UHGV virus genome: UHGV-0066790
Strand: one strand, 5' to 3'
Source: a virus
Length of the DNA stretch: 47,800 bases
The notes under the pieces are model-generated. The model saw only the letters and a program-made list of their open reading frames with translations. It was not told where the DNA came from and did no database searches. The position numbers and the translations under genes are program-made. Of this stretch, positions 4,991-47,145 are shown in pieces (positions within the stretch are counted from its first letter, which is position 1; the number at the start of each line of letters is the position of its first letter).

Positions 4991-5343
4991 CGTTGCTACC
5001 GTTACCGTGCCCGGCGTGTGGGCACCCTGCCGGAATTGCTAGAGCGAACGGTACAGGCTGTGCGTTCGTCATGTGCCAACATGTGAAATGCGCATTTAGT
5101 GGACCCATCAAAACAACGAGTGAAGCCGCCGTTGCCGCATGGAACAACCTGCCCCGAGCGCTGGAGTGGACGCGCGATCCACAATTGGGAGCATGGAATT
5201 GGTGGAGGGATGAATATAGCCGCATCCCTCGGTACGTCTATCAAGATGGAACCGTCGATATCGCTATGCAGATTGACCGTGTATCCTATCAAGATCTTGG
5301 TGGACAATGGTGCCCCATACCCGAACCCCGCGAGAGGATATGA
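4975..5343 (+). CDS. Lar-family restriction alleviation protein
   Basis: N-terminal LPCPACGH...C...C then AAVAAWNNLPRA, resembling the Lar family signature. Confidence 0.55.
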   Translation: MSEELTLLPLPCPACGHPAGIARANGTGCAFVMCQHVKCAFSGPIKTTSEAAVAAWNNLPRALEWTRDPQLGAWNWWRDEYSRIPRYVYQDGTVDIAMQIDRVSYQDLGGQWCPIPEPRERI

Positions 5344-5810
5344 TGGATAGCTGGATGTTGTGGAGCGAACAGCGCCCTACGGATGCCAAGATAGTATACC
5401 GCTGGCGTATCCCCGCACAGGAGATTCTGGGGCTGGTTATGCAGCCGGAATGGTCGGATAAAATCTTTTCCCCCCTATGCCAACCTGATATTTATTGTCC
5501 GAGTTGTGCGAAATGGGACGGGTGGAAATGGCATATACCCAAAGGACTAGAATGGCGCGTTGCGTCGCCGGATGAGCCGGAAGGGGAAAAGGGAGTCGTA
5601 TGGGGCGACCTTGGCTTGCTTCCATGCCCCTTCACCGGGAAACTTCCGACTGTAATCTACCATGGTCGATATATCGGGGCTCCACCATACCATGCAGAAT
5701 GGCTGGGCATAGCATCGCATATTGTCAGATCTATCGGATGGCATAGCGCCAAAGATATGCGCGACGCATGGAATATGAGGTATATACCCGAACCCCGCGA
5801 ACCGAAGTAG
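5340..5810 (+). CDS. Trp/Cys-rich hypothetical protein
   Basis: MMDSW... with RBS GAGAGGA. Shares the C-terminal peptide (Y)IPEPRE with the preceding Lar-like gene. Confidence 0.45.
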   Translation: MMDSWMLWSEQRPTDAKIVYRWRIPAQEILGLVMQPEWSDKIFSPLCQPDIYCPSCAKWDGWKWHIPKGLEWRVASPDEPEGEKGVVWGDLGLLPCPFTGKLPTVIYHGRYIGAPPYHAEWLGIASHIVRSIGWHSAKDMRDAWNMRYIPEPREPK

Positions 5811-5832
5811 CCCCGAAAGGGGCTTTCCTTTT
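5810..5832 (+). terminator. Rho-independent terminator
   Basis: GCCCCGAAAGGGGC hairpin followed by TTTCCTTTT. Confidence 0.5.
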
Positions 5833-5848
5833 AAAGAGGAGAAACGAC

Positions 5849-6343
5849 ATGCGAAGACCCATCAACCCCGTAATCCCGTACCCGCACGAGGCCATCCAGC
5901 ACACTCGCTGTGTTCTGGCCCTGTCCATGATCACCGTGGCGATTTCTTTCCTCAAGCCGGAAATGCTGGCGCAGCTTGGCGACCTTGGAAAGCAGGTCGA
6001 GAAGGTCAACCGCTGGATCGACCGATGTGCGGACGACACGCAGAAGCGCAGACTCTCCGCAGGCGCGAAGCGAGATCTGGATGCCCGGTTCCATATCCTT
6101 GCCGGGCATGTCGGGGACATTCAGGCCGCTGCCGGGGACGCTTCCCGTTGGACGCAATGGGGCGCCGGGATGTGGGCCGGGCTGACCTTTCTTGAGGACT
6201 GCCGGAACACTTGCCCCGCCTACTTCCAAGGCCTTCACTGGCACAACATGCTCAAGACGCTGACCACGCTGTGCAATGCGCTCGAAAAGGTCGACCCGCA
6301 GATAGCAGAGATTGGGACGCGGGTGTACGAGCGGGCCGCGTAG
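5849..6343 (+). CDS. Hypothetical protein
   Basis: ATG at 5849 preceded by AAGAGGAGAAACGAC. 164 aa with a hydrophobic N-terminal segment. Confidence 0.5.
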   Translation: MRRPINPVIPYPHEAIQHTRCVLALSMITVAISFLKPEMLAQLGDLGKQVEKVNRWIDRCADDTQKRRLSAGAKRDLDARFHILAGHVGDIQAAAGDASRWTQWGAGMWAGLTFLEDCRNTCPAYFQGLHWHNMLKTLTTLCNALEKVDPQIAEIGTRVYERAA

Positions 6344-6359
6344 GATGAAAGGAGAAAGG

Positions 6360-6572
6360 ATGGAAACGACAATCTCGGAAATCCGCTCAATCGTACAGCG
6401 GCGTCGGGAGTTAGAGATTGAAGACCAACGTCTCTACCAACGGTTTCTCGAACTGCTCGAACTCAATCAGGGGGCTAGAAAATCTTCACGCGATACGCTA
6501 TCCCTCAAAGCAGGGAAGGCGTTTTTTGCTGACGTGAAAAGGAAATCCCATGAGCGTAGCAAAGCGCGGTGA
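6360..6572 (+). CDS. Small coiled-coil protein (possibly excisionase or regulator)
   Basis: ATG at 6360 after AAAGGAGAAAGG. Immediately upstream of int and overlapping it. Confidence 0.35.
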   Translation: METTISEIRSIVQRRRELEIEDQRLYQRFLELLELNQGARKSSRDTLSLKAGKAFFADVKRKSHERSKAR

Positions 6573-7608
6573 CGGCAGATGGGCCGTCAAGTTCAAGGAT
6601 GAGGAGGGGCGCTGGAGACAGCGCTCTTTCCGTACTGAGGAAGATGCCCGGCAGTTCGATGCGGATTGCCAGTATGATGCGGTGGAAAACACACGCTTGA
6701 CGCTGTTAGAGGCGGTGCTGGTGTACTTAAAAAACACCGAACACGCCGAGAAGACCGTAGGGATTTATGAGTTCATTGTGTGCGGGCATGATCGAAAGAA
6801 TGGGGAACACAGAGAGGGGCCAGCGGAGTTCCTTGCAAACAGATTCGTGGATACATTGACTCGTCGTGACCTCGAAACTGTACGTGAGCGGTGCAGGAAT
6901 GACGGCCTCTCAACAGCAAGTATCAATATCTATGTCGGAAAGATCAAGGCTGCACTCAGTTGGTGCGTTGAACAAGACTTACTCCATGAAAACCCTTGGG
7001 AAAAATATCGACAACTCCCCGGCGTAAGAAACAAGCCACGGACAGGAACATTGGAAGACTTCCACAAACTCTTTCCTGTGCTCCCACCGTGGCTTCAATG
7101 GGCAGCAAAAACAGCCATTGCCCTATGCTTACGTCCCGGCGTGTCCGAACTTTTCCGATTGGAATGGTCGGCATTCGACTGGAAGGCTAGAACCGTGAGC
7201 GTTTACATGCCCAAAGTAGATAGCACCAAAATGGTATTTCCACCAGAGGAATATCTTCAGGAGGCCTGGGTACGCTACCAAGATGATGCGATAAACGGAC
7301 AAAGTTTGGTTTGTAGAAATAGAAAGGGAGGACGTGTGAATAAAGGGCTTTATGAGATTGCATGGAGGCGGGCTTGCCGAAAGGCCGAAGTGTCTATGCC
7401 TATGTATGCCCTGCGACATATCGCCGCGTCCGAGATGCTTTCAAGAGGCGTGGACATCGCCGCAATAGCTGCGCAGCTTGGGCACAAAGATATTACCACC
7501 ACAGGAATTTTCTACACACACGCTCTTGCCTCTTCCCAACGTCGAGCTGCGGCCGCACTCTCTTCTTGCACCAATTTGGTGCAGATTGGTGCGGCAAATA
7601 GCATCTAA
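6550..7608 (+). CDS. int: Tyrosine site-specific integrase
   Basis: C-terminal catalytic region ALRHIAASEMLSRGVDIAAIAAQLGHKDITTTGIFYTH (R...HxxR...Y) plus an N-terminal SAM-like domain. Confidence 0.85.
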   Translation: MSVAKRGDGRWAVKFKDEEGRWRQRSFRTEEDARQFDADCQYDAVENTRLTLLEAVLVYLKNTEHAEKTVGIYEFIVCGHDRKNGEHREGPAEFLANRFVDTLTRRDLETVRERCRNDGLSTASINIYVGKIKAALSWCVEQDLLHENPWEKYRQLPGVRNKPRTGTLEDFHKLFPVLPPWLQWAAKTAIALCLRPGVSELFRLEWSAFDWKARTVSVYMPKVDSTKMVFPPEEYLQEAWVRYQDDAINGQSLVCRNRKGGRVNKGLYEIAWRRACRKAEVSMPMYALRHIAASEMLSRGVDIAAIAAQLGHKDITTTGIFYTHALASSQRRAAAALSSCTNLVQIGAANSI

Positions 7609-13462: not shown

Positions 13463-14364
13463 TATTTCTTGTCCTTCTTCGGCTTCGCGCCGGGATAGCT
13501 TGCCTTGACCTGACTCACCCACTGCGTTGCGCCGGGATAGCCTGCCTGCAATTTGTGGCTCAGGCTCACGACCTGCCAGAGGCCTGATGCGCGAGGGACG
13601 ATGCTCTCGATGCGCACCGGGCCGCCAAGCTGGAGCTTCGGCTCGTAGATGCCTTTCACCGTCACGCCCTCGTTATCGAAGCTCGGATAGCCAATCATGC
13701 CGCTTTTCGCGGACCAGACGGGCGTCGAGCCGCCGTCATCGCTGCGAAGCGTCGCAAGTGGGGAGATGACCATCTCGCCATCGTCCACGATGAGGTCAAT
13801 ACGGGCATCGTGGGCAAGCTGCTGCGCCTGTTCCATCGGGCCCCCGACGATAGCGACATTGCGAAGGGAAACGGACACGCCTCTGTTGACGAAAGCGAGC
13901 CCCATTTGCTTCGCAAGCCCCTGCATGAGCGTGGCAATGTCCTGCGAGCCCTGCGCCGTCAACGGCGGCACGGGCGTAATGCTGGCGACGTATCCCGTGA
14001 TGCACTCAATATCGAAAGAGGGATCAGGGGCGGAATTGAAGTTCGGGACGGCGCTCACGATATCGCCGGAGAATGCTAGCGACATCCCGTGCTCTTCATC
14101 GCCCGCGTACACGGCAATGCGGTTTTTCGACGCCTGCAACGGCTTGAACGCCAGCGTCGTCAGCGTCTCCATATCAGCCAATGGCATGTTGAAAATTTTG
14201 ACCTTGGCCTTGTTCTTCTCTTTCCCGCCGGGCTTCTGGATGTCCACATCCATGCCGAGCCGGATGATCTTTGTGTTCGCACCTTGCCCGGTAGCCGTGT
14301 TGAAGCCGCCCTTGGCGAGCGTAATGTGCGCTTCAAGCAGCTTTTTGGTGAAGCTCGTGTTCAC
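13462..14364 (-). CDS. Baseplate hub-like tail protein
   Basis: 300 aa. Position between the tape-measure-distal genes and the spike. Confidence 0.4.
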   Translation of the reverse strand: MNTSFTKKLLEAHITLAKGGFNTATGQGANTKIIRLGMDVDIQKPGGKEKNKAKVKIFNMPLADMETLTTLAFKPLQASKNRIAVYAGDEEHGMSLAFSGDIVSAVPNFNSAPDPSFDIECITGYVASITPVPPLTAQGSQDIATLMQGLAKQMGLAFVNRGVSVSLRNVAIVGGPMEQAQQLAHDARIDLIVDDGEMVISPLATLRSDDGGSTPVWSAKSGMIGYPSFDNEGVTVKGIYEPKLQLGGPVRIESIVPRASGLWQVVSLSHKLQAGYPGATQWVSQVKASYPGAKPKKDKK

Positions 14365-15218: not shown

Positions 15219-17027
15219 TCAGTACCCGAATGCGCTGTCTGCTTGCGCAGTTTGATTACGAAGTGCCGGAACCACTCCTTGGGCCATCCCTTCCGCATCC
15301 GTAGCCTGTGTGTAGACCTTGACCTCACCCACATGGGTGGTTGACGTCATCTGACGCGAATTGTTGACGTTGCTCACGCTTCCCGGACGCGCATCCCCGG
15401 CGCGCACCTGCGGCGGCAGAATAGACGGGCGGACATCATCAACCCGCATCGAATCGGCGACGCCGCCGGGCTTGGACTCGGCCTTCGTTTCTTCCGGTCG
15501 CGAAGACTCATCGCCGCCGAGCCAGTCCTTGATCCAGTCGGGAAGCAAATTGTAGAGCTTCTGGGCTACCCAGTTCAGCATTTCGACAAGCACATCATTG
15601 ATTTTGGAGATGCCTCCCCAGATCGTTTTGAGGGCTTCGATAACGCCTTTTCCGTCCAGCGTAAGAACGGAGTTGAAGAGCTTGGCGACCCCCGAAAGGG
15701 CATCCCAGACGCCCCCGAGGATACTTTTGATGCCTTCCCAAATAGCCTTGAAACGAGCCCCGATTTCATCGCCAGTTCCGAACATCGACCAGAGCCCGGA
15801 AAGTGCAGATTCTCCGCCGTTGATGTAGGTAATGAGATCGTCGACAACCAGCGCGATCGCGCCGATGCCCGCAATCAACGGCGTAAACGGGGCAATCGCA
15901 GCCCATGCCGCCGTCGCCATCGCGGTCAGGGCCGGGAGCATGAGCGTCGTAATGACCCCGGCTAACGCCGTAAAGAAGACGATCACGAACTGCTTGTTTT
16001 CTTTCACCCACCCGAGGAGATCGCCGAGCAGGTTCGTCAAAAACGTGATCGCAGGGGAGACGGTGCTGGCGAAAAGGGCTGAGATGGCCTCCCATGCGTC
16101 ATTGAGCCGCTGCTGCGCCTCCCGTTGCTTCTTCGCGTTTTCGATGTCCTGCTTGCTGTAGATGGCTTGAGCCTTCTGGACTTTCAGAAGATCCTCAATC
16201 CCTTTGCGGCCCTTGAGGATGAGCGGGATGGTTTTTTCGTCGAAGCCGATCTGCGTGAGGATCGAGGTCGCCTTCTGGCGGCCGATTTTTGACGTGGCGT
16301 CGGAGAGACGAAGGAGTCCTTCTTCAAAGGAAACGGCCTTCCCTTTCGCATCCGTGAAGCTCACCCCTAGGTCTTTGGTCGCGTCCTTAAGCGGCCCGGA
16401 GTCGTGCAAAATGAGATCCTGCATCCAGTCGCCCAAATCCATGAACCGTGTCGAAAGCTCTTCGGCGTCAACCCCAGCGGCGGCTGCCGTCCGTTGCCAT
16501 GCCTGCCAATCTTCAATGCTCATGCCGAGCGCATCCGAAGTCTTCTCAATAGCCTGAGCCTGCTCGTAATACTGCGCTATGGAGCTTTTCAGGATTGAGA
16601 CACCGCCGATGACTGCGAGGGCCTGCGCTGCCACGCTCTTGAGCCGTTCAAAGCCAAACGCGCCTTTGTCCGCCGCGTCTTCCAGCGAAACGCCCAATCT
16701 TTTCGCGGCGGCATCAAGGGCCTCAAGACGTTCTTTTGCCGCTCCGGTGCGGATAAGCTCCTCGCGCATCCGCTGATACTCTTTCGTAACCTCACTGATT
16801 TCGCGGCCTTTTTGCACGGCTTCCTCGAAGGCGGCTTGCAACGAAGAGGCGGCATCGGCAGACTGGCCAAGACCTTGGGCCCCCTTGACGCCTGCGTCAT
16901 ATGTCGCGCGCCCCGCGTCAACGGCTGCGGCCTGCACGCCGTCCAGTCCTTTTTGGGCGTTCTGCACTTGAGCTTTGAAAGCCCCTGCGGAGAGGATGAG
17001 GGAAACGACGAGTTCACCTGCGTTCAT
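15219..17027 (-). CDS. Tail tape measure protein
   Basis: 602 aa, Ala/Gln-rich coiled coil with a central hydrophobic segment (FVIVFFTALAGVITTLMLPALTAMATAAWAAIAPFTPLIAGIGAIALVV). Located after the chaperone. Confidence 0.8.
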   Translation of the reverse strand: MNAGELVVSLILSAGAFKAQVQNAQKGLDGVQAAAVDAGRATYDAGVKGAQGLGQSADAASSLQAAFEEAVQKGREISEVTKEYQRMREELIRTGAAKERLEALDAAAKRLGVSLEDAADKGAFGFERLKSVAAQALAVIGGVSILKSSIAQYYEQAQAIEKTSDALGMSIEDWQAWQRTAAAAGVDAEELSTRFMDLGDWMQDLILHDSGPLKDATKDLGVSFTDAKGKAVSFEEGLLRLSDATSKIGRQKATSILTQIGFDEKTIPLILKGRKGIEDLLKVQKAQAIYSKQDIENAKKQREAQQRLNDAWEAISALFASTVSPAITFLTNLLGDLLGWVKENKQFVIVFFTALAGVITTLMLPALTAMATAAWAAIAPFTPLIAGIGAIALVVDDLITYINGGESALSGLWSMFGTGDEIGARFKAIWEGIKSILGGVWDALSGVAKLFNSVLTLDGKGVIEALKTIWGGISKINDVLVEMLNWVAQKLYNLLPDWIKDWLGGDESSRPEETKAESKPGGVADSMRVDDVRPSILPPQVRAGDARPGSVSNVNNSRQMTSTTHVGEVKVYTQATDAEGMAQGVVPALRNQTAQADSAFGY

Positions 17028-23114: not shown

Positions 23115-23156
23115 TAGAAAAGGGGTGGCTTTAAGAGCCGCCCCTTTTTGTTTTTC
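23115..23156. terminator. Bidirectional rho-independent terminator
   Basis: GGGGTGGCTTTAAGAGCCGCCCC hairpin with GAAAA before and TTTTTGTTTTT after. Confidence 0.6.
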
Positions 23157-23214
23157 TGCCTCTCCCTTCTGTTACTGACGAGTTAAAAAAGATAAAACTT
23201 TTTTTTGAAAAAAT

Positions 23215-23278
23215 TGTTTATTTTTTCAAAAAATGGTGCTATTGTATTTTCAACGAAAGGGACAAAAGGAGAGTTCTC
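23215..23278 (+). promoter_or_regulatory. Promoter/leader P1 with conserved -10/leader motif
   Basis: AT-rich with inverted repeats TTTTTTTTGAAAAAA/TTTTTTCAAAAAA. TATTGT then TTTTCAACGAAAGGGACAAAAGGAGA is shared with P2 at 45273-45322. Confidence 0.4.
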
Positions 23279-23635
23279 ATGATAACCATCACCACAGCCA
23301 ACAACGAAACAACTCTTGAAAACGACAAGGCTTTCTGTGCATATCGTATCGAAACAGAAATCGATTTTGATGAAGATGGTTATGAAGTGGACGGAGAGCA
23401 ATATGTGCTCATCGAAAAGCTTTTTGTTCCCTCAGAGAATCGCGGAAACGGCATTGCCCGCCGCCTTCTTCGTGAAGCCGTCTCTCACGCTCGCGCTACT
23501 TACCCCGGAATGGCGATTCGGTTGGTAGCTGAACCTCTGGATGCCGATACAGATATGGATCGGCTGGTGGCCTTTTATGAAAGCGAAGGTTTTGATGTGA
23601 TCGAAGCTGGCGAAATCGTAGTAATGGAACACTAA
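23279..23635 (+). CDS. Small GNAT-fold acetyltransferase-like protein
   Basis: 118 aa with an acetyl-CoA motif-A-like segment ENRGNGIARRLLREAV. Low GC relative to the flanks. Confidence 0.5.
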   Translation: MITITTANNETTLENDKAFCAYRIETEIDFDEDGYEVDGEQYVLIEKLFVPSENRGNGIARRLLREAVSHARATYPGMAIRLVAEPLDADTDMDRLVAFYESEGFDVIEAGEIVVMEH

Positions 23636-23655
23636 ACAGAACAAAGGAGTAAGAC

Positions 23656-23826
23656 ATGACCCGCTATTCTATCCTGCTCACGACTGGCACAACGGGAACC
23701 ATCGATACCGAACAGCATCTTGAAGAGGGCATGGAAGTAGTCATCACCTTGCACGATGAAAACGGAAACAGAACGCAGGAAACCGGACTCATCGCTGAAA
23801 TTCTTGACGAAGAATTTTTAGGGTAA
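23656..23826 (+). CDS. Small hypothetical protein (56 aa)
   Basis: RBS AAAGGAGTAAGAC then ATG. MTRYSILLTTGTTGTIDTEQHLEEGMEVVITLHDENGNRTQETGLIAEILDEEFLG. Below the track's 60-aa cutoff. Confidence 0.4.
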   Translation: MTRYSILLTTGTTGTIDTEQHLEEGMEVVITLHDENGNRTQETGLIAEILDEEFLG

Positions 23827-23848
23827 TCGAATTAAAAGGAAAAACACC

Positions 23849-24349
23849 ATGAAGCTGTACCACGGAAGCTTGATTGAACATCTGGCTATCTCTAACTCAG
23901 GAACAGGGTTAGGGTATAACTTCGGTGCGGTGTTCTTTGCCCGTACTTACGGACATGCAAAGGAATACGGAAATTACGTCTACCAGTGCGAAATAGACAT
24001 CGAGGACATCTTCTTGAACGAGGATCTCCCGTATCTTGAAGATGGCGCTGCTGGAACGGCTCTACGTGAAGTTATGGCAGAGCGCGGTATAGACGAAAAG
24101 TATTTTGATCTCTGCTGGTATGCCGTGGTTGAAGAGAAAATTGGTTATCAAGATGAAGACTGGGTAAACCTCCTCAACATGGATGACGATGACGCAAGTT
24201 GGGAGGCTCAGGCCATGCGGATCGCCTTTGCCCGTAAGCTCGGCTTCAAGGCTGTTGAAATGGATGACGAATGCGGCAGCATTGCGGTTCTTCCCGAGTT
24301 CATAAAGCTGGAAGCGGCAACGGAGGAATACGATGAAGAGGAAGACTAA
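23849..24349 (+). CDS. LYHGS-motif protein (DUF3990-like putative ART-fold) with acidic tail
   Basis: N-terminus MKLYHGS...GYNFGAVFFARTYGHAKEYG resembles the DUF3990 signature. The C-terminus is Asp/Glu-rich (MDDDDASWE...EEYDEEED). Confidence 0.45.
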   Translation: MKLYHGSLIEHLAISNSGTGLGYNFGAVFFARTYGHAKEYGNYVYQCEIDIEDIFLNEDLPYLEDGAAGTALREVMAERGIDEKYFDLCWYAVVEEKIGYQDEDWVNLLNMDDDDASWEAQAMRIAFARKLGFKAVEMDDECGSIAVLPEFIKLEAATEEYDEEED

Positions 24350-25724
24350 GATAGACATCGACGATCTTATCGATTTCAGTTCAAAGCTGGTGAACTCGAA
24401 TTCCAGCGTCGGTATTCGCTTGTCGTCGGGTGCCGCGCTCGCCCTTCCGTACCTGTCCACGAGGACATGTCTTGCGGCAGGGATTTCTATGCCGCTGGAT
24501 ACGGCAAACGGGGCCAAGGATGTGGGAAAGGTAAGTGCTCTATACAAAAAACTCGAAGAAGGGGAGGAAGGAGAGAAAGCAGATACAGAGGCGGCATTGA
24601 AGAAAATCCGTAAAACAGGATTTGCCAGAAAAACAGAGTCTGTCGACAGACGGATTCGTCAACTGCTCATCCCTAAAGACGTACCCTCTGGGTATGTCTC
24701 TTTGTCTCCCCTCCCCTCCATTGGACTTTCCGTTTTGCTGTTAGGAGCCGTTACAAGGCATAATCAAGATGTCTTTTCAAAAAAGAAGGAAGGTATCAAA
24801 ATTCGACGGGCACATCTCGCTTTGGGCGGGGCAAACCCTCAGAATCTAGGATACGCTGCGTCCAAAAAGGCGATACAATATCCTGTTTTTCTTTCTACAC
24901 CCAAATCCGTGCGCGGAAATGCCAGCCGTCAGGCGTCAGGAAAGGGAACTTACCTGATCCTTTCCAATCTCTTTGTGCAAACGGCAAACATCTTGACGAA
25001 TTATACTATGCTCAACGGCGCGCCCCTCTTTGCAGCATGGGGGATGGGACATGCACTGGAGCGCGAGATGCATGGTCCCAAAGTTACCGGAGTATGCCTT
25101 GTTGTGCATAGCATCGAACCCCTTGGGGAGCATGAAACCGCTATTTTCGAGCCTAGCCAAAGAGTAGGAGCGGCTTTTACTTTTGAAAAATCCCGTAACG
25201 GGAGCGACTACGCAAAAGGCTCCACACATCTCTCTTTGCAGCCCGGTGCAACGGGGCATATACGGGTGAGCCTTATCTTTGAACTGTCGGAAGCCCTGCA
25301 TTCCGTACCGAACGCCGTGGATCTTTTCTTGAACTTCGGAAAGTTCTCCGGTGGGCTGATCACTTCATACGACGCCCCGGCTTTGCATGATGACCGCTCT
25401 ACGCTTCTAGAGTGCATTCCCGCCGGGAAAGTTGTTTTGGATCGGCGCGACGTTATGAGCCCTGGAAACCCCATTGAACAGCTTGTAACCGCGATAGGAA
25501 CGTACAGCGGAAAATGGCTGTCCGCAACGAATATCGGTTTTTCAGCAATCACAGACTTTCAAGTTCGCGGAGGGGCACGGAACGGGTGCCTCCATGCTTT
25601 TGCGGAGCCGCTGATCGGCATTACAGAATACGTCTCTACTGAAAAGAGGATACACGGGTATTTCTGGCGCAGCCAGTGGGAAGAAGATAGCTTTTTGATG
25701 AGGGGAGATTCAACAAATGAATGA
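24333..25724 (+). CDS. Large protein of unknown function (463 aa)
   Basis: Overlaps the upstream stop by 17 nt and the downstream start by 8 nt (ATGAATGA). No recognisable catalytic motif. Confidence 0.55.
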   Translation: MKRKTKIDIDDLIDFSSKLVNSNSSVGIRLSSGAALALPYLSTRTCLAAGISMPLDTANGAKDVGKVSALYKKLEEGEEGEKADTEAALKKIRKTGFARKTESVDRRIRQLLIPKDVPSGYVSLSPLPSIGLSVLLLGAVTRHNQDVFSKKKEGIKIRRAHLALGGANPQNLGYAASKKAIQYPVFLSTPKSVRGNASRQASGKGTYLILSNLFVQTANILTNYTMLNGAPLFAAWGMGHALEREMHGPKVTGVCLVVHSIEPLGEHETAIFEPSQRVGAAFTFEKSRNGSDYAKGSTHLSLQPGATGHIRVSLIFELSEALHSVPNAVDLFLNFGKFSGGLITSYDAPALHDDRSTLLECIPAGKVVLDRRDVMSPGNPIEQLVTAIGTYSGKWLSATNIGFSAITDFQVRGGARNGCLHAFAEPLIGITEYVSTEKRIHGYFWRSQWEEDSFLMRGDSTNE

Positions 25725-25938
25725 TGCACAAGAAAAAAAGCAGGGGGGACGCCGTAAAGGATCTGGACGTAAAAAAAAGGTTGAAAATCGTGCAACAGTA
25801 AAGACTGTATCTATGCCGGATCATGTCTGGGAACGGCTGAACGATGTATGTACAGATAGGGGTATCCTACGCTCACAGGTAGTACGGGAAGCAGTCGAGA
25901 TGTGGCTGGACGCAAATATACAGCAGCTTGGAAAATGA
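25717..25938 (+). CDS. Ribbon-helix-helix (CopG/ParD-like) DNA-binding protein
   Basis: Basic N-terminal arm (KKQGGRRKGSGRKKK), then beta-strand and helix TVKTVSMPDHVWERLNDVCTDRGILRSQVVREAVEMWL. Confidence 0.55.
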   Translation: MNDAQEKKQGGRRKGSGRKKKVENRATVKTVSMPDHVWERLNDVCTDRGILRSQVVREAVEMWLDANIQQLGK

Positions 25939-31856: not shown

Positions 31857-32603
31857 ATGTACAAAAGCATCATGGTGTTTCTGCTGGCCGCGCTGGTTAT
31901 GACGTCCGAGGCGCAGGCCGCGGGCAACGAATGGAACGATTCGTTCAGCAAGGCCAAGAAGACGCTGGAACGGCAGGTCTATTATGACCATCGGATCACG
32001 CTCTACTGCGGGGCGGCGTTCGACGAGAAGAAGAACGTCACCCTGCCGGAGGGTTTTACTGCCGCGAAGCACGAGAAGCGGGCCGGGAAGGTGGAATGGG
32101 AACACGTGGTCCCCGCCGAGAACTTCGGGCAGGCTTTTCCGGAGTGGCGCGAGGGGGACGCACAGTGCGTGGACGCGAAGGGGAAGGCATTCAAGGGCCG
32201 CAAGTGCGCGGAAAAGGTGAACCGGGAATACCGCCTCATGCAAAGCGACATGTACAACCTCTATCCGGCCATCGGTGCGGTCAACGCCCTGCGCCAGAAT
32301 TACAACTTCCAGATGCTGCCCGGCGAGGAGCCGGATTTCGGAAGCTGCGGGATGAAGATCGCCGACCGCAGGGCCGAGCCGCCCGTCCGGGCGCGGGGAC
32401 AAATTGCCCGGACCTACAAGTATATGGCCGACGCCTACGCCCCGCGCTACCGCATGAGCCGCCAGCAGACGCAGCTCATGGACGCATGGGACAAGATGTA
32501 TCCGGTTGATGCGTGGGAATGCACGCGGGCCAGACGTATTGAAAGACTACAAGGTAACGAGAACCCTTTTGTGAAGGAAAGATGTCAAGAAGCAGAACTC
32601 TAA
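31857..32603 (+). CDS. endA: Secreted endonuclease I (EndA family)
   Basis: Signal peptide MYKSIMVFLLAALVMTSEAQA. Blocks VEWEHVVPA, SDMYNLYPA, EPPVRARGQIARTYKYM and SRQQTQLMDAWDKMYPVDAWECTRARRIERLQGNENPFVKERCQ closely match E. coli EndA. RBS AGGGAGGT. Confidence 0.85.
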   Translation: MYKSIMVFLLAALVMTSEAQAAGNEWNDSFSKAKKTLERQVYYDHRITLYCGAAFDEKKNVTLPEGFTAAKHEKRAGKVEWEHVVPAENFGQAFPEWREGDAQCVDAKGKAFKGRKCAEKVNREYRLMQSDMYNLYPAIGAVNALRQNYNFQMLPGEEPDFGSCGMKIADRRAEPPVRARGQIARTYKYMADAYAPRYRMSRQQTQLMDAWDKMYPVDAWECTRARRIERLQGNENPFVKERCQEAEL

Positions 32604-32617
32604 CTCTTTACATTCAT

Positions 32618-35600
32618 TTATATTCTCCTTCCCATACGTGGCTGATTGAGGATGGCGGGGTTGATGCACATGGGCCGCTTGGTATCGAAATCACGCAGCG
32701 CCTGTGTTGTGGCGTCCACTTGGTCGTCGTGGGGCGCACCGGGGAACTGTGTCAGTTCCGCGACGTACTCCCGCGCCCACGGGCAATGCTCAGGGTGCGG
32801 GAGCAGGACGTTCCCGGCCTCGAAGAACGTGGTCACGGCATGGGCCCGGGCCGTCTTGCTGCCGTCCGGCTCCACGGGGATGATACCGGGCACAGCATGT
32901 TTCAGCGCGTCGATAACCGCCGGGCCGTTGGCCTTATCCTCCACCAGCTTACGGGCTGCGCCGGGCCATTTAGCGGCGAGCGCCCGGAACGCGGCGACCG
33001 TATCCGTAAATCCCATGCGCCGCCGGACCTGATCGAGGAGGTAGCGGTCGGCCCCCTTGCGGCCCCACACCTGCCCCACAACAAAGTCGGTATCGTCGCC
33101 GTCTTTGAACGTCATATCCCACGAGATAAGGAGCTGGTCGAACTGCTCCGGAAGGTCTTTGGGGAGCCAGAACCGCAGCCACTCGGATTTGAATATGGCG
33201 CCGCCGTCTGGCGTAGGCCGCTGCTGGTACAGGGCTTCCCAGTCGCGTGTGCCGAGGGCTTTCTTAATGGCAAGAAGCTGCTCCAACGGGTAGCGTTCAG
33301 GGTGTAAGGCTTCACCTGCCCTACGGTGCAGCTCGTCTTCCGTTGCGATGGCGGGGAAGTTCACTACGCGCCAGTGGTCGCCCTCCCCCCGTGCGGCGGC
33401 CTCAAGCAGCCGCCCTGAGAGGTCAGCCATGTGCCAGCGAGTGTTGATGATGAGCACCCCTCCACCGGGCGCGAGGCGCGTGTACAGCGTGGACGTGTAC
33501 CAGTCCCAGACGTTCTGGCGGATGGTCGGGGAATCGGCGGACGCCCGGTCCTTGAACGGGTCGTCGATGATAGCGCAGTTGTGGACAAGGACACCGCCGG
33601 CAAAGAAGTTCTGATTACGTGCTACTTGGATATCAACAAAACGGCGTGCTGTTCCGTATATTCGCGCAATGTTGGCAATATGTCCCGCTTGTACTGTTCT
33701 TCTTTCATGCCGTGCAAGATCCTGTGGCACTTGCTGCACAGCGTAATCAAGTTTGTCGCAACATTGTTGATCGGAATAAGATCCATGTGATGAACCTCCA
33801 ACCGTGTTTCCTCCTTGCCACATAGAACACAACGATGCTGATCCCTGTCTAAAATCAAAGGCCGAAACTGTCGGAATGCCCGCGCAGAGTGCACCTGTTC
33901 CCGCAAGGGAGTCATGCCGTGACGGTATCGGGGATTCCCCTTGCCAGACATCAGAATAGAGTGTGCAATTTCGCTGCACCGCTTGCTGCAATACTTGGCA
34001 AAAATACCGCGTCCCCTGTGGGCAGACATAAAGAGCTTGTTGCAGATAGGGCAAATTTTTTCTCTGGGCTGATGCTCGACAGGGACCTGGCTCGGCTTCT
34101 TGAATTTTGCGGCACATTCCGGGCAGGTCTTTGCCCCTTTGGTTCTCCCTGTGTGTTTGATGATCCGTCCACAACCGGGGCACGTCTTGCTGTTCTTGAC
34201 TGCATGATGGGCACAAGAATGTTCCTTGCAGCAGTAGAAATCTTTCATCCCCTTCCTGATATTTTTGGCCACCACATAAGCCGGCCTCACAAACTCCAGG
34301 CCACACCAGGCACAAGATAGGATCACCCGTGGCAATTGATGATGCAGGGGTATATTCCCCCCGTGAAAAGATCGGATGGTTTCCTGTAACTTCAAGAACT
34401 CTGCCAAGGGCATCGCGTAATCGGTAGCTTTCTTCTGCATATCGATCCTTTACCGCTATCACTATATCAGTTTCAATTTCCCCCGTTTGATGATTGTATG
34501 ATAGCACGTTATCCCCGACTTGTAGGGTCTCGATAGCGCGATCTCCGTCAGGAGTCGCAATTTGTGTTCCAATGACAACGCATTCCGCACCCATGCCCGT
34601 GATGCCGCCGCCCACGCCAGCGGAACGGTAGCAGCCAGCGTGCCCCACCACCTCGAATATGTCCGAATTGCGGAGGTAGGAGCCGTTCCCGACTGTGCGG
34701 ATGTTCTTGCCGTACAGCGCCGTGCCGGGAAAAAGTTCCCGATATTCCGGGCTGTCGATGACGCGCTGCACGTCGCGGTTCATGCGCGAGGACAGGTCGG
34801 CGGCGTAGCTTGTGGAGATAATGGAGAGATCGGGGTAACGGCCCAAGGCGTAGGCCGGGAAACGGCGGGAGGCCAGCTCGCTATTGTGGGTTATCGTAAG
34901 GTGTTTGCCAACTAAATATAAGCCATCTGGACTATCCACCTGAATACAATTCCCCATTTTAGGCGACTCTAGCGCTCGTACACATTTGATGGATACGCGC
35001 CGACGCAGAGAAGAAAACGTTTTATTAACTTTTTTCCGTTCAAGTCTGCACGGGACAACTACACCGGAAAAGAAAAATGACACCACATAAACCTGTGACT
35101 TATTTTTAATCGTTCTTTCCCGATTATCTAGTGCTGGGATATTTGTATGCGCTACAAACCCGCATAGCATGGCCAATTCTTCTACATCATGCGCTAACAG
35201 CTCATTGGATGTTGTAAAACGATATCTGTTTGTCTTTCTATCAAAATGACCATCCGTATCAATAAGTCCAGCAAGCAAGTCAAGCCTGTTTTCTAGGCTA
35301 TCATGCTTGTACTCATTAGGAATATGTTTATTTTTTAGCAGATCAGCATCTTTTAGAGCCTGCGAAAATATATTTCTTCTATTTTTCACGCCGCTGGCAA
35401 ATGAAAAAGTTTCAACTCCAGTATCTCTATGCACCCATGTTCCAGTTATTGGCACACCTAGTCGTTCAAACTCCATTTTGACGACACAAGCGTCATCAGG
35501 AGCCATGTTTATTCTGGGCGCGATTGACGTTCCATCACCTAACCACACGCCCAAAACGTATGGCGGGATAACGTGTTCTACGGCAGGCCATTGGGGAGCA

Positions 35601-36151
35601 TCAGCTGTGTCCACCTGATACAAATACCTGTGCCCTCTGGTGTCTGGGATACCGCTATCCAGCTTCCTAAGCGCCTTAGTTTTTTTGCTTGGCTCCACAA
35701 AGTATCGTGTCTCAACTGTTCTATATCCGGGTTTAGTCCTGTCATACACCCGCCACTCATGATCAAGGTGCACATCTATTATGTCGCCATTGGTAAAAAC
35801 AACAGAATGAGTGGCAAAATTTTTCTCGCCCACAGCAACAACCCTCACAGGTTTGCCACTTGGGTGAAATACATAATCACCAACCTTAAGCGCACCATGA
35901 GTTTTCCACCCATCAACCGTCAAAACAGGAGTATCATCAGCGCACAGTTTCCCATGTCGCGGCGGCATGGTCAGCATGAGGCGCGGGGAACGTCCGGCCA
36001 CGACATCGGCAAGGAAGGCGTCCAGCTCGGAACAGATTTCCTCATGCACCCATCCCATCTTGTAGCCGGGCATGGTGTAGCGCACGAAGGCCGCGAGGCA
36101 ACTCCGGGCCAGCGCCTTCCTGATGTCGGCAAGGATGGATGGGCTACTCAT
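32618..36151 (-). CDS. terL: Terminase large subunit interrupted by two inteins
   Basis: Exteins: residues 1-69 (…MPPRHGKL, P-loop), 424-523 (…GHAGCYRSAGVGGGITGMGAE), 859-1177 (CAIIDDP... nuclease domain with HDDQVDATTQAL). Confidence 0.8.
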   Translation of the reverse strand: MSSPSILADIRKALARSCLAAFVRYTMPGYKMGWVHEEICSELDAFLADVVAGRSPRLMLTMPPRHGKLCADDTPVLTVDGWKTHGALKVGDYVFHPSGKPVRVVAVGEKNFATHSVVFTNGDIIDVHLDHEWRVYDRTKPGYRTVETRYFVEPSKKTKALRKLDSGIPDTRGHRYLYQVDTADAPQWPAVEHVIPPYVLGVWLGDGTSIAPRINMAPDDACVVKMEFERLGVPITGTWVHRDTGVETFSFASGVKNRRNIFSQALKDADLLKNKHIPNEYKHDSLENRLDLLAGLIDTDGHFDRKTNRYRFTTSNELLAHDVEELAMLCGFVAHTNIPALDNRERTIKNKSQVYVVSFFFSGVVVPCRLERKKVNKTFSSLRRRVSIKCVRALESPKMGNCIQVDSPDGLYLVGKHLTITHNSELASRRFPAYALGRYPDLSIISTSYAADLSSRMNRDVQRVIDSPEYRELFPGTALYGKNIRTVGNGSYLRNSDIFEVVGHAGCYRSAGVGGGITGMGAECVVIGTQIATPDGDRAIETLQVGDNVLSYNHQTGEIETDIVIAVKDRYAEESYRLRDALGRVLEVTGNHPIFSRGEYTPASSIATGDPILCLVWPGVCEAGLCGGQKYQEGDERFLLLQGTFLCPSCSQEQQDVPRLWTDHQTHRENQRGKDLPGMCRKIQEAEPGPCRASAQRKNLPYLQQALYVCPQGTRYFCQVLQQAVQRNCTLYSDVWQGESPIPSRHDSLAGTGALCAGIPTVSAFDFRQGSASLCSMWQGGNTVGGSSHGSYSDQQCCDKLDYAVQQVPQDLARHERRTVQAGHIANIARIYGTARRFVDIQVARNQNFFAGGVLVHNCAIIDDPFKDRASADSPTIRQNVWDWYTSTLYTRLAPGGGVLIINTRWHMADLSGRLLEAAARGEGDHWRVVNFPAIATEDELHRRAGEALHPERYPLEQLLAIKKALGTRDWEALYQQRPTPDGGAIFKSEWLRFWLPKDLPEQFDQLLISWDMTFKDGDDTDFVVGQVWGRKGADRYLLDQVRRRMGFTDTVAAFRALAAKWPGAARKLVEDKANGPAVIDALKHAVPGIIPVEPDGSKTARAHAVTTFFEAGNVLLPHPEHCPWAREYVAELTQFPGAPHDDQVDATTQALRDFDTKRPMCINPAILNQPRMGRRI
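33578..34582 (-). mobile_element. Intein 2 (Hint domain) in the terL Walker B site
   Basis: Begins CVVIGTQIATPDG, block B TGNHPIF, ends FVDIQVARNQNFFAGGVLVHN before Cys. The central region in the terL frame is low-complexity. Confidence 0.6.
33622..34440 (-). CDS. HNH endonuclease with Zn-ribbon repeats, encoded in a different frame inside intein 2
   Basis: Multiple CxxC pairs. C-terminal HNH motif CVLCGKEETRLEVHHMDLIPINNVATNLITLCSKCHRILHG. Frame is +1 relative to terL. Confidence 0.65.
   Translation of the reverse strand: MQKKATDYAMPLAEFLKLQETIRSFHGGNIPLHHQLPRVILSCAWCGLEFVRPAYVVAKNIRKGMKDFYCCKEHSCAHHAVKNSKTCPGCGRIIKHTGRTKGAKTCPECAAKFKKPSQVPVEHQPREKICPICNKLFMSAHRGRGIFAKYCSKRCSEIAHSILMSGKGNPRYRHGMTPLREQVHSARAFRQFRPLILDRDQHRCVLCGKEETRLEVHHMDLIPINNVATNLITLCSKCHRILHGMKEEQYKRDILPTLREYTEQHAVLLISK
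34883..35944 (-). mobile_element. Intein 1 (Hint + double LAGLIDADG homing endonuclease) in the terL Walker A site
   Basis: Begins CADDTPVLTVDGW, contains LGVWLGDGTS and LLAGLIDTDGHF, ends ...VGKHLTITHN before Ser. Confidence 0.7.
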
Positions 36152-40510: not shown

Positions 40511-42301
40511 TCATTCTCCGTAAAAATCTATTATTTCTTGCGTCTTTTGAATCTCTGCAATCTGCTTGCAGTAATCGCCGATTGAATCAATGAGGCGTTT
40601 CCTGTCTTTTTCAGCCCAAAAAACCAAATGTGGGTTGTAATCCGGTATCTCCTGAATAGGTGAGGAGTCATAAAAATAACCATCAAGCAGCCTAAAGAAC
40701 TGTTCTCTTCCTTCAGGATTGAATCCTGATCTATAGTTCTTGCATTTGGTCACCTTCATGCTTCCAACTATGCCGTTTGGGAGATGCCCGTGCGTGAAAA
40801 GAGAAATGCCGAGTCTTGCTTTTTCGAGAGTGAATTCCCCACCTCTTCCGAACATCTCCCCTTTCTTCTTCTGAATCGTAATGATTGCGATTCCATTTTG
40901 AAGACGATCAAAAATCTTTTTGATGTCTCCCCCTATTTTCGAAAAATCTTCATAAACTTCCAAGAAATCAACAATATTGATGCCATTTGGGTCTATGGCA
41001 TCATGAAAATGATTGGAACGCTGAATAAACGTTGTAAATTTCGACCATTCTTCAACCGCAAGCCCAAAACGTTCTATGCGTCCCCTGATTTCATTCGGCG
41101 TCATTTCAGAAGAGAGATAGCGGATCTTGTGCTTGTGCCTGTTCATGTAGCAAAAATTGAAAAGCAGGCCCGTCTTCCCCGAGTTTGTTTCGCCAGCGAT
41201 CACGATGATATTCCGGGGCTGGACAAAGCACATTCTGTGAAGTCCAAAGGGGAGCCACAAATCCAACGGTGGGGTTTCCTCTTGTACAAGGTCTATGACT
41301 TCCAATCCGCTTTCACGCTTGCGATACCATCCGGAGCGTTTCCCGCAGGGCTCGATTTCCCCACGAGAAAGAAGCTCCCGAAGTTCCTGCTGGCACAGTT
41401 CCCTGTCTTCGGCTTTCAGGATGCCAAGATCGCGGTAAATATCTGCAATGCAAAACTCGCCCGAAGACATGGCAACCCAGCGGGATACCCCCCCTGCGTT
41501 GAGCTTCTGTGGGTTTCTGTTCCTGTGTGTCGAAGCCATGCTCCGCACAATCGTGTTCACTTCCGTGTCCGGCAACGGTGGTTTGCAGTGCGCACGGTTC
41601 CATGCCTGCGCATACAGCAAAACCTCTTCCCCCCGCAGCCCCCTGGCGTACATCCTCCCGCAAAGACTGGTAATCGCCTGATTTCTACCGCCCTTTTGAA
41701 CGTCAGCATCATGATCCGTCGCCGAACCATCCTGGACTTCTTTGACCTCGTATTTATCTTCACCCACTCGAACCAGCTGGATATCCGGCAGGGGGACAAG
41801 GGAATCTATGCCGGAAAAGCCATCAAGCTGATGCGCCCGATACTCCGCCCCGGAAGGGTGTATCGACGGAGCAAACACGACATAGGAGCCATCCCCGCGC
41901 ACGTCGATTTCATCGTTCACCAGCGAGACGGACGGAGGAATACGCCTTCCCCCGCCGGGATGCTGATAGAACGCGTGGAACTTGTCCTTTGCCGAAGTCA
42001 TTTGGTACCAGTTGGGGCGCGGCATATGAGACTTGAACCACGCTTGACCCTTCGGCCCGTCGACATCGATCGCCACCACGCCCGAAACTTCGCCGCATAC
42101 CAGTGCGATATTTGCGTTGGGCTCGATTTCAAACCAGCCGCGGATTTCTTCAGGCGTGGGTATCCTATGCTGAAATTCTTCCCATTTTCCGCCGGGAAGA
42201 GCCTTTGCCAATGGGCGCTTTGACTGCGGAACGAGCGGAATGACGCTGCATCCCATCGCCTGCAACCTGAGCGCGGATTCAAGACAACGGGCGGCCATCA
42301 C
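40511..42301 (-). CDS. Bifunctional primase-polymerase (PrimPol + PriCT-1) fused to a RecA-like/DnaB-like helicase ATPase
   Basis: N-terminus SVIPLVPQSKRPL...NIALVCGEVSGVVAIDVD (Prim-Pol). Middle NQAITSLCGRMYARGLRGEEVLLYAQAWN (PriCT). C-terminus IIVIAGETNSGKTGLL Walker A. Confidence 0.75.
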   Translation of the reverse strand: MMAARCLESALRLQAMGCSVIPLVPQSKRPLAKALPGGKWEEFQHRIPTPEEIRGWFEIEPNANIALVCGEVSGVVAIDVDGPKGQAWFKSHMPRPNWYQMTSAKDKFHAFYQHPGGGRRIPPSVSLVNDEIDVRGDGSYVVFAPSIHPSGAEYRAHQLDGFSGIDSLVPLPDIQLVRVGEDKYEVKEVQDGSATDHDADVQKGGRNQAITSLCGRMYARGLRGEEVLLYAQAWNRAHCKPPLPDTEVNTIVRSMASTHRNRNPQKLNAGGVSRWVAMSSGEFCIADIYRDLGILKAEDRELCQQELRELLSRGEIEPCGKRSGWYRKRESGLEVIDLVQEETPPLDLWLPFGLHRMCFVQPRNIIVIAGETNSGKTGLLFNFCYMNRHKHKIRYLSSEMTPNEIRGRIERFGLAVEEWSKFTTFIQRSNHFHDAIDPNGINIVDFLEVYEDFSKIGGDIKKIFDRLQNGIAIITIQKKKGEMFGRGGEFTLEKARLGISLFTHGHLPNGIVGSMKVTKCKNYRSGFNPEGREQFFRLLDGYFYDSSPIQEIPDYNPHLVFWAEKDRKRLIDSIGDYCKQIAEIQKTQEIIDFYGE

Positions 42302-45545: not shown

Positions 45546-46021
45546 CGAATTTCGCGGGAAGCCCCGCACTGTTCTTTGACAATCAGCGCGACGACGGCCC
45601 CAAGCTGGACACCAGCGGCAAGCCTGAGCCCCCGGCGGATAAAGCAAGCCGGGGTAGAGAAAAGGAAAAGGGACTTTGGAACGTCAACCTCAACCAAGGA
45701 TCAAGCGTCAACTACCCCGGCCTGAAGGCCGAGGCTTGAAAGAGCCTCTAGTTGACTAGCCTCAGTCCGTCGAAAGGCGGGCTACGTTGGTTGGGAATGT
45801 ACAGGCACCGCGGGATGCAGATCCTAGTCCCGCGCTCTGCGGCCGATGGTTAAAAGCTCTGAGGGGCAGGAGCGGTGCTGTCGGCAGGAAACCCCTTCCA
45901 ACATTGGCGAAGGATTACAACCGGTCGCAAGACCGAGGAGACAAATCTTGAGAGTATTTCTTAGAAAGGAGGCGGCGCTTCCTCCCCAGCATGAATGCAG
46001 GGGTCTCCGCGCCGATATTTG

Positions 46022-46735
46022 ATGAACGAATTGCAGATTTTCGAGAAGGCGGAGTTCGGCAAGGTTCGCGTTGTCGAACACAATGGCGAACCGTGGTTTG
46101 TGGCGAAGGATGTGGCCGTAGCGTTGGGGTATGCCAGCACAAACATGACAACCGTTTTTCAGGCTGTACCGGATGAATGGAAGGGTAGCAATCGGATTGC
46201 TACCCCCGGCGGCGAACAGGAAATGCTCATCATTTCCGAGCCCGGTCTGTACTTTTTCCTTGCCAGATCGGATAAGCCCACAGCCTTGCCGTTCCAAAAG
46301 TGGCTTGCTGGTGATGTCGTACCGTCTATCCGCAAGCATGGCATCTACGCCACCGAGAATGTCGTCAATCAGATTCTGGACAACCCGGAATTCGGTATCC
46401 AACTCCTCACCGCCCTCAAGGAAGAACGCGAGGCACGCGTCAATGCTGAAAAGCGCGTCGCTATCCTCTCTCACGTCCGCAAGACGTACACCACAACAGA
46501 AATCGCTAAGGAGCTCGGATTCCGCAGTGCCGTAGCCTTCAATCGGGTCCTCTGTGAACAGCACATCCAATACAAGCAGAACGGAACCTATGTCCTGTAC
46601 GCGGAATATGCTGAACTCGGATACGTCCACATCAAGCAGGAAGTGCTTGAGAACGACAAGGTTGTCTACCACCGCAGATGGACGCAACTCGGTAGGGAAT
46701 GGCTCATCGGAAGGTTCGGAATCAAGGCCGCCTAG
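46022..46735 (+). CDS. Phage antirepressor (Bro-N + KilA-C/Ant domains)
   Basis: N-terminus MNELQIFEKAEFGKVRVVEHNGEPWFVAKDVAVALGY is the Bro-N signature. The C-terminal half resembles KilAC. Confidence 0.7.
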   Translation: MNELQIFEKAEFGKVRVVEHNGEPWFVAKDVAVALGYASTNMTTVFQAVPDEWKGSNRIATPGGEQEMLIISEPGLYFFLARSDKPTALPFQKWLAGDVVPSIRKHGIYATENVVNQILDNPEFGIQLLTALKEEREARVNAEKRVAILSHVRKTYTTTEIAKELGFRSAVAFNRVLCEQHIQYKQNGTYVLYAEYAELGYVHIKQEVLENDKVVYHRRWTQLGREWLIGRFGIKAA

Positions 46736-46991: not shown

Positions 46992-47145
46992 TTCCAACGT
47001 CTACATGAAGCACGCCAAGGTATCACTGGAACGGCCTAAAAAGGTTGACCGGGCTAGAGTTGCTGCGGTCATCATCTTTATGGCTGTCATGCTCGGTATC
47101 TGCATTCTTCCACAGATCTTGTACGGGATGGAGGCCATGCGATGA
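46988..47145 (+). CDS. Small membrane protein (52 aa)
   Basis: ATGA coupling on both sides. TM helix AAVIIFMAVMLGICILPQIL. Confidence 0.35.

Follow-up and report, generated by a model that had tools for sequence, protein, structure and literature searches.

A divergent AcrIF11-family ADP-ribosyltransferase beside an orphan Cas8f-Cas5f fusion on a Bilophila prophage

In the virus genome UHGV-0066790, a stretch of 47,800 nucleotides (nt) that was analysed as a whole and is referred to here as the window, we recognized a new, divergent member of the known AcrIF11 family: a protein of 166 amino acids (aa) encoded at 23849–24349 on the plus strand, assigned from curated hidden Markov models and invariant residues. 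AcrIF11Pae1 and AcrIF11Pae2 are anti-CRISPR mono-ADP-ribosyltransferases from Pseudomonas phages and plasmids. The NCBI label of the protein in the window, “hypothetical protein [Bilophila wadsworthia],” can thus be corrected to an AcrIF11-type anti-CRISPR enzyme, which would extend enzymatic anti-CRISPRs to the phages of Desulfovibrionaceae. Within its Bilophila prophage, the protein is most likely an enzymatic inhibitor of the host type I-F Csy complex, and we put the probability of this reading at roughly 80%, because the protein scores about twice the cutoff of the NCBIfam model for AcrIF11, its gene adjoins one derived from Cas8f and Cas5f, and type I-F spacers of the host genus match these phages.

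By analogy with the Pseudomonas enzymes, a temperate Bilophila phage would produce the 166-aa protein as an NAD+-dependent mono-ADP-ribosyltransferase that modifies, in the assembled Csy complex, the asparagine of Cas8f that reads the protospacer-adjacent motif (PAM), which in Pseudomonas aeruginosa Cas8f is N250 (bioRxiv 10.1101/453720). The modified complex would no longer bind target DNA, and the phage or prophage would so escape CRISPR targeting. The gene would act as the third of five in an anti-defence operon with a promoter/operator region of its own.

Family assignment, predicted catalytic residues, and the acidic tail

The NCBIfam model NF052490 (“AcrIF11 family anti-CRISPR ADP-ribosyltransferase”), an equivalog model with a cutoff of 50 bits, matched the 166-aa protein at 106.2 bits (E 2.5e-30), with residues 1–146 covering profile positions 1–140 of 142. 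The precomputed annotation assigns PF26151 (AcrIF11_ADP_ribosyl) to the protein and, among its 32 close homologs, to 28. Among PDB sequences, phmmer recovered both solved AcrIF11 proteins, AcrIF11Pae2 (8DWQ; E 5.4e-6, residues 1–146) and AcrIF11Pae1 (6KYF; E 1.2e-3), although the pairwise similarity that these values represent is low. The close homologs and the curated family match also mark the open reading frame (ORF) as a genuine gene. A preliminary description, which had been made from the letters of the window, had located this ORF and a preceding one of 56 aa, both of which are present, and had taken an LYHGS-type N-terminus as the mark of an ADP-ribosyltransferase (ART). The strings that it quoted (MKLYHGS, NFGAVFFART, HAKEYG, and a C-terminal EEYDEEED) all occur in the 166-aa protein, and the ART assignment is borne out by NF052490, PF26151, 8DWQ, and 6KYF, all of the AcrIF11 family. 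DUF3990, the family that had been named, has a YHGS-like motif at its N-terminus and has been proposed to adopt an ART fold; it returned no match to the 166-aa protein in an hmmscan of Pfam-A at E≤1, and the same search gave no match of the 56-aa protein to DUF3791, so that the DUF3990/DUF3791 identity was rejected.

The residues on which catalysis would depend are well conserved. In the alignment with characterized AcrIF11, H5 corresponds to the NAD-site His7, F29 to Phe26, and D140/E141 to D146/E147 of AcrIF11Pae2 and D115/E116 of AcrIF11Pae1, and all of these are unchanged throughout the clade to which the protein in the window belongs. When 1.84 billion representative proteins were searched exhaustively, 140 relatives were found, 69 of them of standalone size; D140, E141, Q121, and G132 are found in all 69 standalone members, F29 in 68, and H5 in 66. 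The position of His37 is occupied by Tyr40 in this clade, and across the family it is His in 53/69 and Tyr in 6/69. His5, Phe29, Tyr40, and Asp140-Glu141 are the predicted catalytic residues. In AcrIF11Pae1, the substitution D115A abolishes ADP-ribosylation (PMC8120803; PMC12421852).

Apart from family membership, the protein has in common with AcrIF11Pae1 and AcrIF11Pae2 an N-terminus of the form [LF][YF]HGS that includes the NAD-site His, the conserved Phe, the D-E catalytic loop, carriage by a mobile element, an operon of anti-CRISPR type that includes a gene for a small DNA-binding regulator, and a host lineage with type I-F systems. It differs from the Pseudomonas proteins in the Tyr at the His37 position, in an extra conserved acidic tail of ~10–20 residues, and in its host, Bilophila (Desulfovibrionaceae), the Cas8f of which is too divergent to be aligned to P. 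aeruginosa Cas8f. The operon regulator also differs, being a ribbon-helix-helix (RHH) candidate in the window and a helix-turn-helix (HTH) Aca in the case of Pseudomonas AcrIF11.

The acidic tail (residues ~157–166, ATEEYDEEED; 24317–24346, plus strand) is specific to the clade and lies beyond the NF052490 match, which ends at residue 146. It is kept in 21/21 clade members, down to 52% identity, and is indeed unusual for the family, as had been supposed from the letters, since most standalone members have only 0–2 acidic residues among their last 12. The preliminary description had placed DDDDASWE in the same acidic C-terminus; that string (residues 112–119) is in fact internal to the conserved core, with W118 present in 67/69 members, and its counterpart in AcrIF11Pae2 is the SWE.Q helix. 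The last codons of the tail overlap the start of the downstream 463-aa gene, the two genes sharing 17 nt. The tail is nevertheless a feature of the protein rather than a by-product of this overlap, because it is also present at loci where the downstream gene differs or is absent (L007, L023). It is predicted to be disordered, with residues 160–166 modeled at a predicted local distance difference test score (pLDDT) below 50. It is worth noting that characterized AcrIF11 requires K58 and K60 of Cas7f for substrate recognition (PMC8120803); by extension, and as speculation, electrostatic docking of the tail on the basic surfaces with which the Csy complex binds DNA can be envisaged.

Type I-F systems of the host genus and the target of the enzyme

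A genome scan with the Cas5f domain of the neighboring fusion protein alone as the query led to a Bilophila locus, L018 (“uncultured Bilophila sp. MGYG-HGUT-01277”), which holds a standalone relative of Csy2. This type I-F locus encodes Cas2/3, Csy1, Csy2, Csy3, Csy4, and Cas1 and has two arrays with 28-nt repeats and 32-nt spacers. One of its spacers matches the window at 28/32 positions, at a protospacer (16441–16472; 16439–16472 with its PAM, plus strand) that is preceded by 5′-CC, the canonical type I-F PAM. This protospacer lies inside a 602-aa tail gene, third codon positions account for three of its four mismatches, and the number of such matches expected by chance is about 2e-7. A second Bilophila spacer matches two other loci that bear the cassette, L005 (29/32, at 14004) and L025 (28/32, at 9501), again with a 5′ CC PAM in each case. 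The two matching spacers are located at 13842–13873 and 13782–13813 in L018. Judged from these matches, Bilophila type I-F systems do target these phages, and the AcrIF11 homolog therefore has a target to act upon. The matches link phage to host and show that a type I-F arms race is under way in the gut; we found no paper linking Bilophila with anti-CRISPRs in the literature searched.

The Csy1 proteins of the Bilophila type contain an invariant GG[AS]NPQN motif, which, to go by matching spacing, may correspond to K247...N250 of P. aeruginosa Cas8f and so contain the equivalent of N250, a tentative lead. The Bilophila Cas8f itself (L018 8571–9995) carries a long, low-complexity insertion rich in Lys, Asp, and Glu (residues ~225–275) just before GGSNPQN, and this insertion is absent from the phage fusion.

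Several observations weigh against the preferred reading of the enzyme. Homologous domains also occur inside giant polyvalent proteins of 2454–4312 aa, and their targets in that setting need not be Cas8f. The sole Pfam-A match of the 166-aa protein at E≤1 is a weak one to ART-PolyVal (PF18760), a domain of polyvalent proteins of phages and conjugative elements, at 16.9 bits over residues 1–82, below the Pfam threshold of 31.2 bits. The evidence for type I-F is at the level of the genus, and MGYG-HGUT-01277 is not necessarily the strain that carries the prophage. Neither a profile of Bilophila-type Csy1, nor an Acinetobacter Csy1, nor the Bilophila Csy1 could be aligned to P. aeruginosa Cas8f in the PDB. 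Tyr40 and the extra acidic tail indicate that the specificity of the clade could differ. Finally, the structure lends the ART fold weak support: the AlphaFold2 model of the 166-aa protein is poor (pLDDT 64.7, residues 1–44 below 50), because its input alignment held close homologs only, and its best Foldseek match in the PDB, although it is 6KYF, reaches E 0.08 with a probability of 0.90 and template-modeling (TM) scores of 0.36/0.42. The model is thus consistent with the fold but is not independent support for it.

The domains within polyvalent proteins, the weak ART-PolyVal match, Tyr40, and the acidic tail, together with the low identity to characterized AcrIF11 proteins, make up the case for the main rival explanation, in which an ART of the AcrIF11 fold modifies not Cas8f but a different host protein with a defence or housekeeping function, as the related ART domains of polyvalent phage and conjugative-element proteins may do. 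We consider this improbable, since the score is twice the cutoff of an equivalog model, the gene lies directly beside one derived from Cas8f and Cas5f, and the host genus has type I-F systems with spacers against these phages. In comparison with ART-PolyVal, the 166-aa protein is standalone and of a single domain, and its scores with the AcrIF11 models are much higher. As a natural AcrIF11 variant with Tyr40 and an acidic tail, it could show how the enzyme recognizes divergent Csy complexes.

The Cas8f-Cas5f fusion, the GNAT/56-aa pair, and the operon

The gene that overlaps the end of the AcrIF11 homolog (24333–25724, plus strand) encodes a 463-aa protein that NCBI names “type I-F CRISPR-associated protein Csy2.” PADLOC models and BLASTP comparisons indicate that it is better described as an orphan fusion of an N-terminal part of Cas8f (Csy1; residues ~8–193) with a full Cas5f (Csy2; residues ~206–463), carried by a prophage whose host is a pathobiont of the human gut. 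The PADLOC Cas8f model matched residues 10–193 with profile positions 27–216 of 401, and the Cas5f model matched residues 208–453 with profile positions 1–249 of 254. By BLASTP, the protein is related to Csy1 P0045 (1e-36) and to Csy2 P0041 (1e-57, 41% identity), and in comparison with the Bilophila proteins it is 33% identical to residues 74–307 of the 475 of Cas8f and 42% identical to Cas5f. What the fusion lacks is the C-terminal part of Cas8f, the last ~170 residues. Its standalone relatives are located in complete type I-F loci. The fusion lies on a virus, outside any CRISPR-Cas locus and adjoining an AcrIF11 homolog, as would be expected of a cas-derived anti-CRISPR. No array, type I-F repeat, or other cas gene was seen in the window or in annotated flanks, the window contains no CRISPR-like tandem repeat, and a search of it for the Bilophila type I-F repeat at up to seven mismatches found nothing. 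A phage-borne CRISPR array and an RNA anti-CRISPR in the form of a solitary repeat were both rejected on these grounds.

In P. aeruginosa Cas8f, the N-terminal domain reads the PAM (N111, K247, N250) and a C-terminal helical bundle recruits Cas2/3 (bioRxiv 10.1101/453720). Because the part of Cas8f that recruits Cas2/3 is missing, the fusion could poison type I-F Csy complexes and is a candidate cas-derived anti-CRISPR. There is precedent in AcrIB3 and AcrIB4, cas-derived inhibitors of type I-B from Listeria phages (bioRxiv 10.1101/2023.06.24.545427). Like these proteins, the fusion is a phage-borne orphan homolog of Cascade subunits (Cas5 and part of Cas8) that adjoins a known acr gene and is ~33–42% identical to the host-type proteins. 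Unlike them, it derives from type I-F rather than type I-B and is one fused polypeptide, and it keeps the N-terminal part of Cas8f with the whole of Cas5f; what AcrIB4 retains is the C-terminus of Cas8b alone. We found no description of a phage-borne Cas8f-Cas5f fusion of type I-F in the literature searched. Sister cassettes carry other orphan cas homologs, namely a 484-aa Cse1/Cas8e homolog of type I-E directly after the 56-aa gene (5184–6638 in both L023 and L024) and a 350-aa Csy3/Cas7f homolog at the same hotspot in L025 (6527–7579). The locus thus offers candidate cas-derived inhibitors of both type I-F and type I-E.

Upstream of the AcrIF11 homolog, the first gene of the operon (23279–23635, plus strand) encodes a 118-aa GNAT acetyltransferase (Acetyltransf_7, 32.5 bits, cutoff 27), which is a candidate enzymatic anti-defence protein. 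No specific PDB relative of it was found, AcrVA5 included, the PDB giving generic GNAT matches only (E≥0.05). The second gene, the 56-aa ORF (23656–23826, plus strand), has an ATG start with GGAG upstream and is likewise a genuine gene, because its ratio of nonsynonymous to synonymous substitution rates (dN/dS) is 0.12–0.30 across five sequence variants; the dN/dS of the GNAT gene is similar, at 0.11–0.28. Its product is acidic (isoelectric point, pI, 4.07) and is modeled by AlphaFold2 as an all-beta protein of four strands (pLDDT 88). This confident model has no significant fold match in the PDB (best Foldseek E 0.4, TM below 0.5), and no family match is significant, EFP (OB domain) and DUF2196 being sub-threshold in Pfam. 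A likeness of the pair to AcrVA5 or to GNAT toxin-antitoxin systems was also considered, and no similarity was found.

Comparison of the loci makes clear which genes belong together. All cassette variants seen have the GNAT and 56-aa genes side by side, whether or not AcrIF11 is present (23279–23826 on the plus strand of the window, 4630–5171 in L023, 4623–5171 in L025, and 495–1043 in L026). The gene order is AcrIF11, GNAT, 56 aa, and orphan Cse1 in L023, so that GNAT separates AcrIF11 from the 56-aa gene; it is GNAT, 56 aa, and Cse1 in L024, and RHH, GNAT, 56 aa, and 62 aa in L025 and L026, with the orphan Csy3 near in L025, and AcrIF11 is absent from all three. Conversely, L007–L010 contain an AcrIF11 homolog (56% identical) without the 56-aa gene, followed only by a 62-aa gene, the product of which, in L007, is of a basic-arm RHH type as judged from its sequence; the two genes there apparently form an acr-aca-like pair. 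Since GNAT is the sole constant neighbor across the loci, the 56-aa gene is tied to GNAT and not to AcrIF11, and its product is best regarded as a separate small acidic protein rather than as an antitoxin or partner of the ART. The two-gene module of the preliminary description accordingly holds insofar as the two ORFs adjoin in the window, but the pair is not conserved, and the constant neighbor of the 56-aa gene is the GNAT gene upstream.

These neighborhoods bear on two further explanations. One would make the 56-aa protein a common subunit that confers specificity on the enzymes of the operon or regulates them, perhaps as an adaptor through which GNAT, the ART, or both reach the Csy complex; the 56-aa protein and the ART would then act together, although not as antitoxin and toxin. 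Its small size, acidity, confidently predicted fold, and purifying selection, and its constant presence in these GNAT-containing anti-defence cassettes, would suit such a role, but it is a long shot, given that the gene occurs without AcrIF11 in L024–L026 and AcrIF11 without it in L007–L010, that GNAT is its only invariant neighbor, and that neither structure nor family gives a clue to a binding partner. The other, a DUF3990-like ART toxin neutralized by the upstream 56-aa antitoxin, can be dismissed as largely refuted by the gene neighborhoods and very improbable: the two genes do adjoin on the same strand 22 nt apart, each with a purine-rich ribosome-binding site before it, the larger product is an ART-type enzyme, and ART toxins with small antitoxins exist (e.g., DarT/DarG, ParT/ParS; PMC8120803), but either gene occurs without the other, GNAT lies between them in L023, there is no conserved small partner as DUF3990 has in DUF3791, neither protein has a profile match to these families at E≤1, and Csy1 is the predominant substrate of characterized AcrIF11, for which no toxicity in vivo is described (PMC12421852). 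In PADLOC, none of the GNAT, 56-aa, 166-aa, and RHH proteins matched a toxin-antitoxin model or any other model of a defence system, apart from a “CorA-like” match of the 166-aa protein at 18.6 bits that was treated as noise.

Inhibition of the host Csy complex by the AcrIF11 homolog may be one part of a broader attack, in which the whole operon would be a multi-pronged weapon against type I-F CRISPR. The AcrIF11 enzyme would chemically blind Cas8f, and its acidic tail would either dock on the basic surfaces where Csy binds DNA or mimic DNA there; the co-translated fusion, which keeps the PAM-reading part without the C-terminal part that recruits Cas2/3, would replace native Cas8f-Cas5f and give Csy complexes that cannot recruit the nuclease. 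The invariant GNAT/56-aa pair, which may be a new two-component anti-defence module, would add a further enzymatic activity. We regard this broader scheme as tentative and, taken as a whole, rather doubtful. If it is true, the fusion would be the first type I-F cas-derived anti-CRISPR with sequence-traceable ancestry, and the Cas8e and Cas7f sister cassettes would make the hotspot a natural library of cas-derived inhibitors. In any case, the Cas8f-N/Cas5f fusion, the GNAT/56-aa pair as a candidate GNAT-based anti-defence pair, and the sister cassettes with orphan Cas8e and Cas7f are more novel leads than the 166-aa protein.

The five genes span 23279–25938, in the order GNAT, 56 aa, AcrIF11, Cas8f-N/Cas5f fusion, and RHH regulator candidate. 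The last of these (25717–25938, plus strand) encodes a 73-aa, basic-arm, ribbon-helix-helix protein that is a candidate Aca-type regulator; RHH_1 and RHH_3 match it below threshold in Pfam, and phrog_876, a transcriptional repressor, matches it at E 1e-4. A terminator-like hairpin of 15 pairs with a T-run (23117–23149, plus strand) ends the preceding gene and sets the upstream boundary of the operon. Beyond it lies a promoter-like site (23205–23234) that overlaps paired AT-rich palindromes, TTTTTTTGAAAAA and TTTTTTCAAAAAA, within 23200–23234 (plus strand), a candidate operator. L011 and L023 have the same palindrome pair as the window, and in 6/6 loci compared the GNAT gene is preceded by a conserved leader and ribosome-binding site. 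RHH-type Aca regulators are known to bind AT-rich inverted repeats at the promoter, as described for Aca14 (PMC13551039), and the layout in the window resembles that of Aca14-regulated operons in having AT-rich palindromes at the promoter and an RHH gene in the operon. By this analogy, the operon is probably autoregulated by the 73-aa protein, as in acr-aca operons.

The operon is flanked on both sides by phage structural genes, and copies of the locus are found on a 1.0-Mb Bilophila contig. The cassette of GNAT (118 aa), 56 aa, AcrIF11, and 463 aa, with or without RHH, occurs in two phage backbones that are unrelated to each other, one that of an E217-like myovirus and the other that of L005, and is therefore mobile. 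The cassette DNA had no match among deposited phages.

Other features of the window

A tyrosine integrase gene (6550–7608, plus strand) indicates a temperate lifestyle. The large terminase ORF (32618–36151, minus strand) is 1177 aa long, as against 487 aa in related phages, and contains Hint/Intein_splicing domains at residues ~524–858 and a LAGLIDADG domain at residues 290–338; given its excess length and these domains, it probably carries one or two inteins. An Endonuclease_1 gene (31857–32603, plus strand) lies between the portal and terminase genes, on the strand opposite to the terminase ORF, and its counterpart is shorter in L002 (156 aa) and absent in L004. A Prim-Pol/PriCT primase is encoded at 40511–42301 on the minus strand.

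Near the end of the window there is a full-length HEARO RNA (Rfam RF02033, 137 bits; 45707–45921, plus strand), followed by a Bro-N/ANT antirepressor (45995–46735, plus strand) and then by a 194-aa HNH endonuclease ORF (47142–47726, plus strand). The HEARO family is the guide-RNA scaffold of IscB-type nucleases, and the arrangement seen here would be unusual for it. At the opposite edge, positions 28–195 are occupied by a tandem array of 11 copies of the 15-nt unit GCCAACCTGCGGGGT, with 87% matches.

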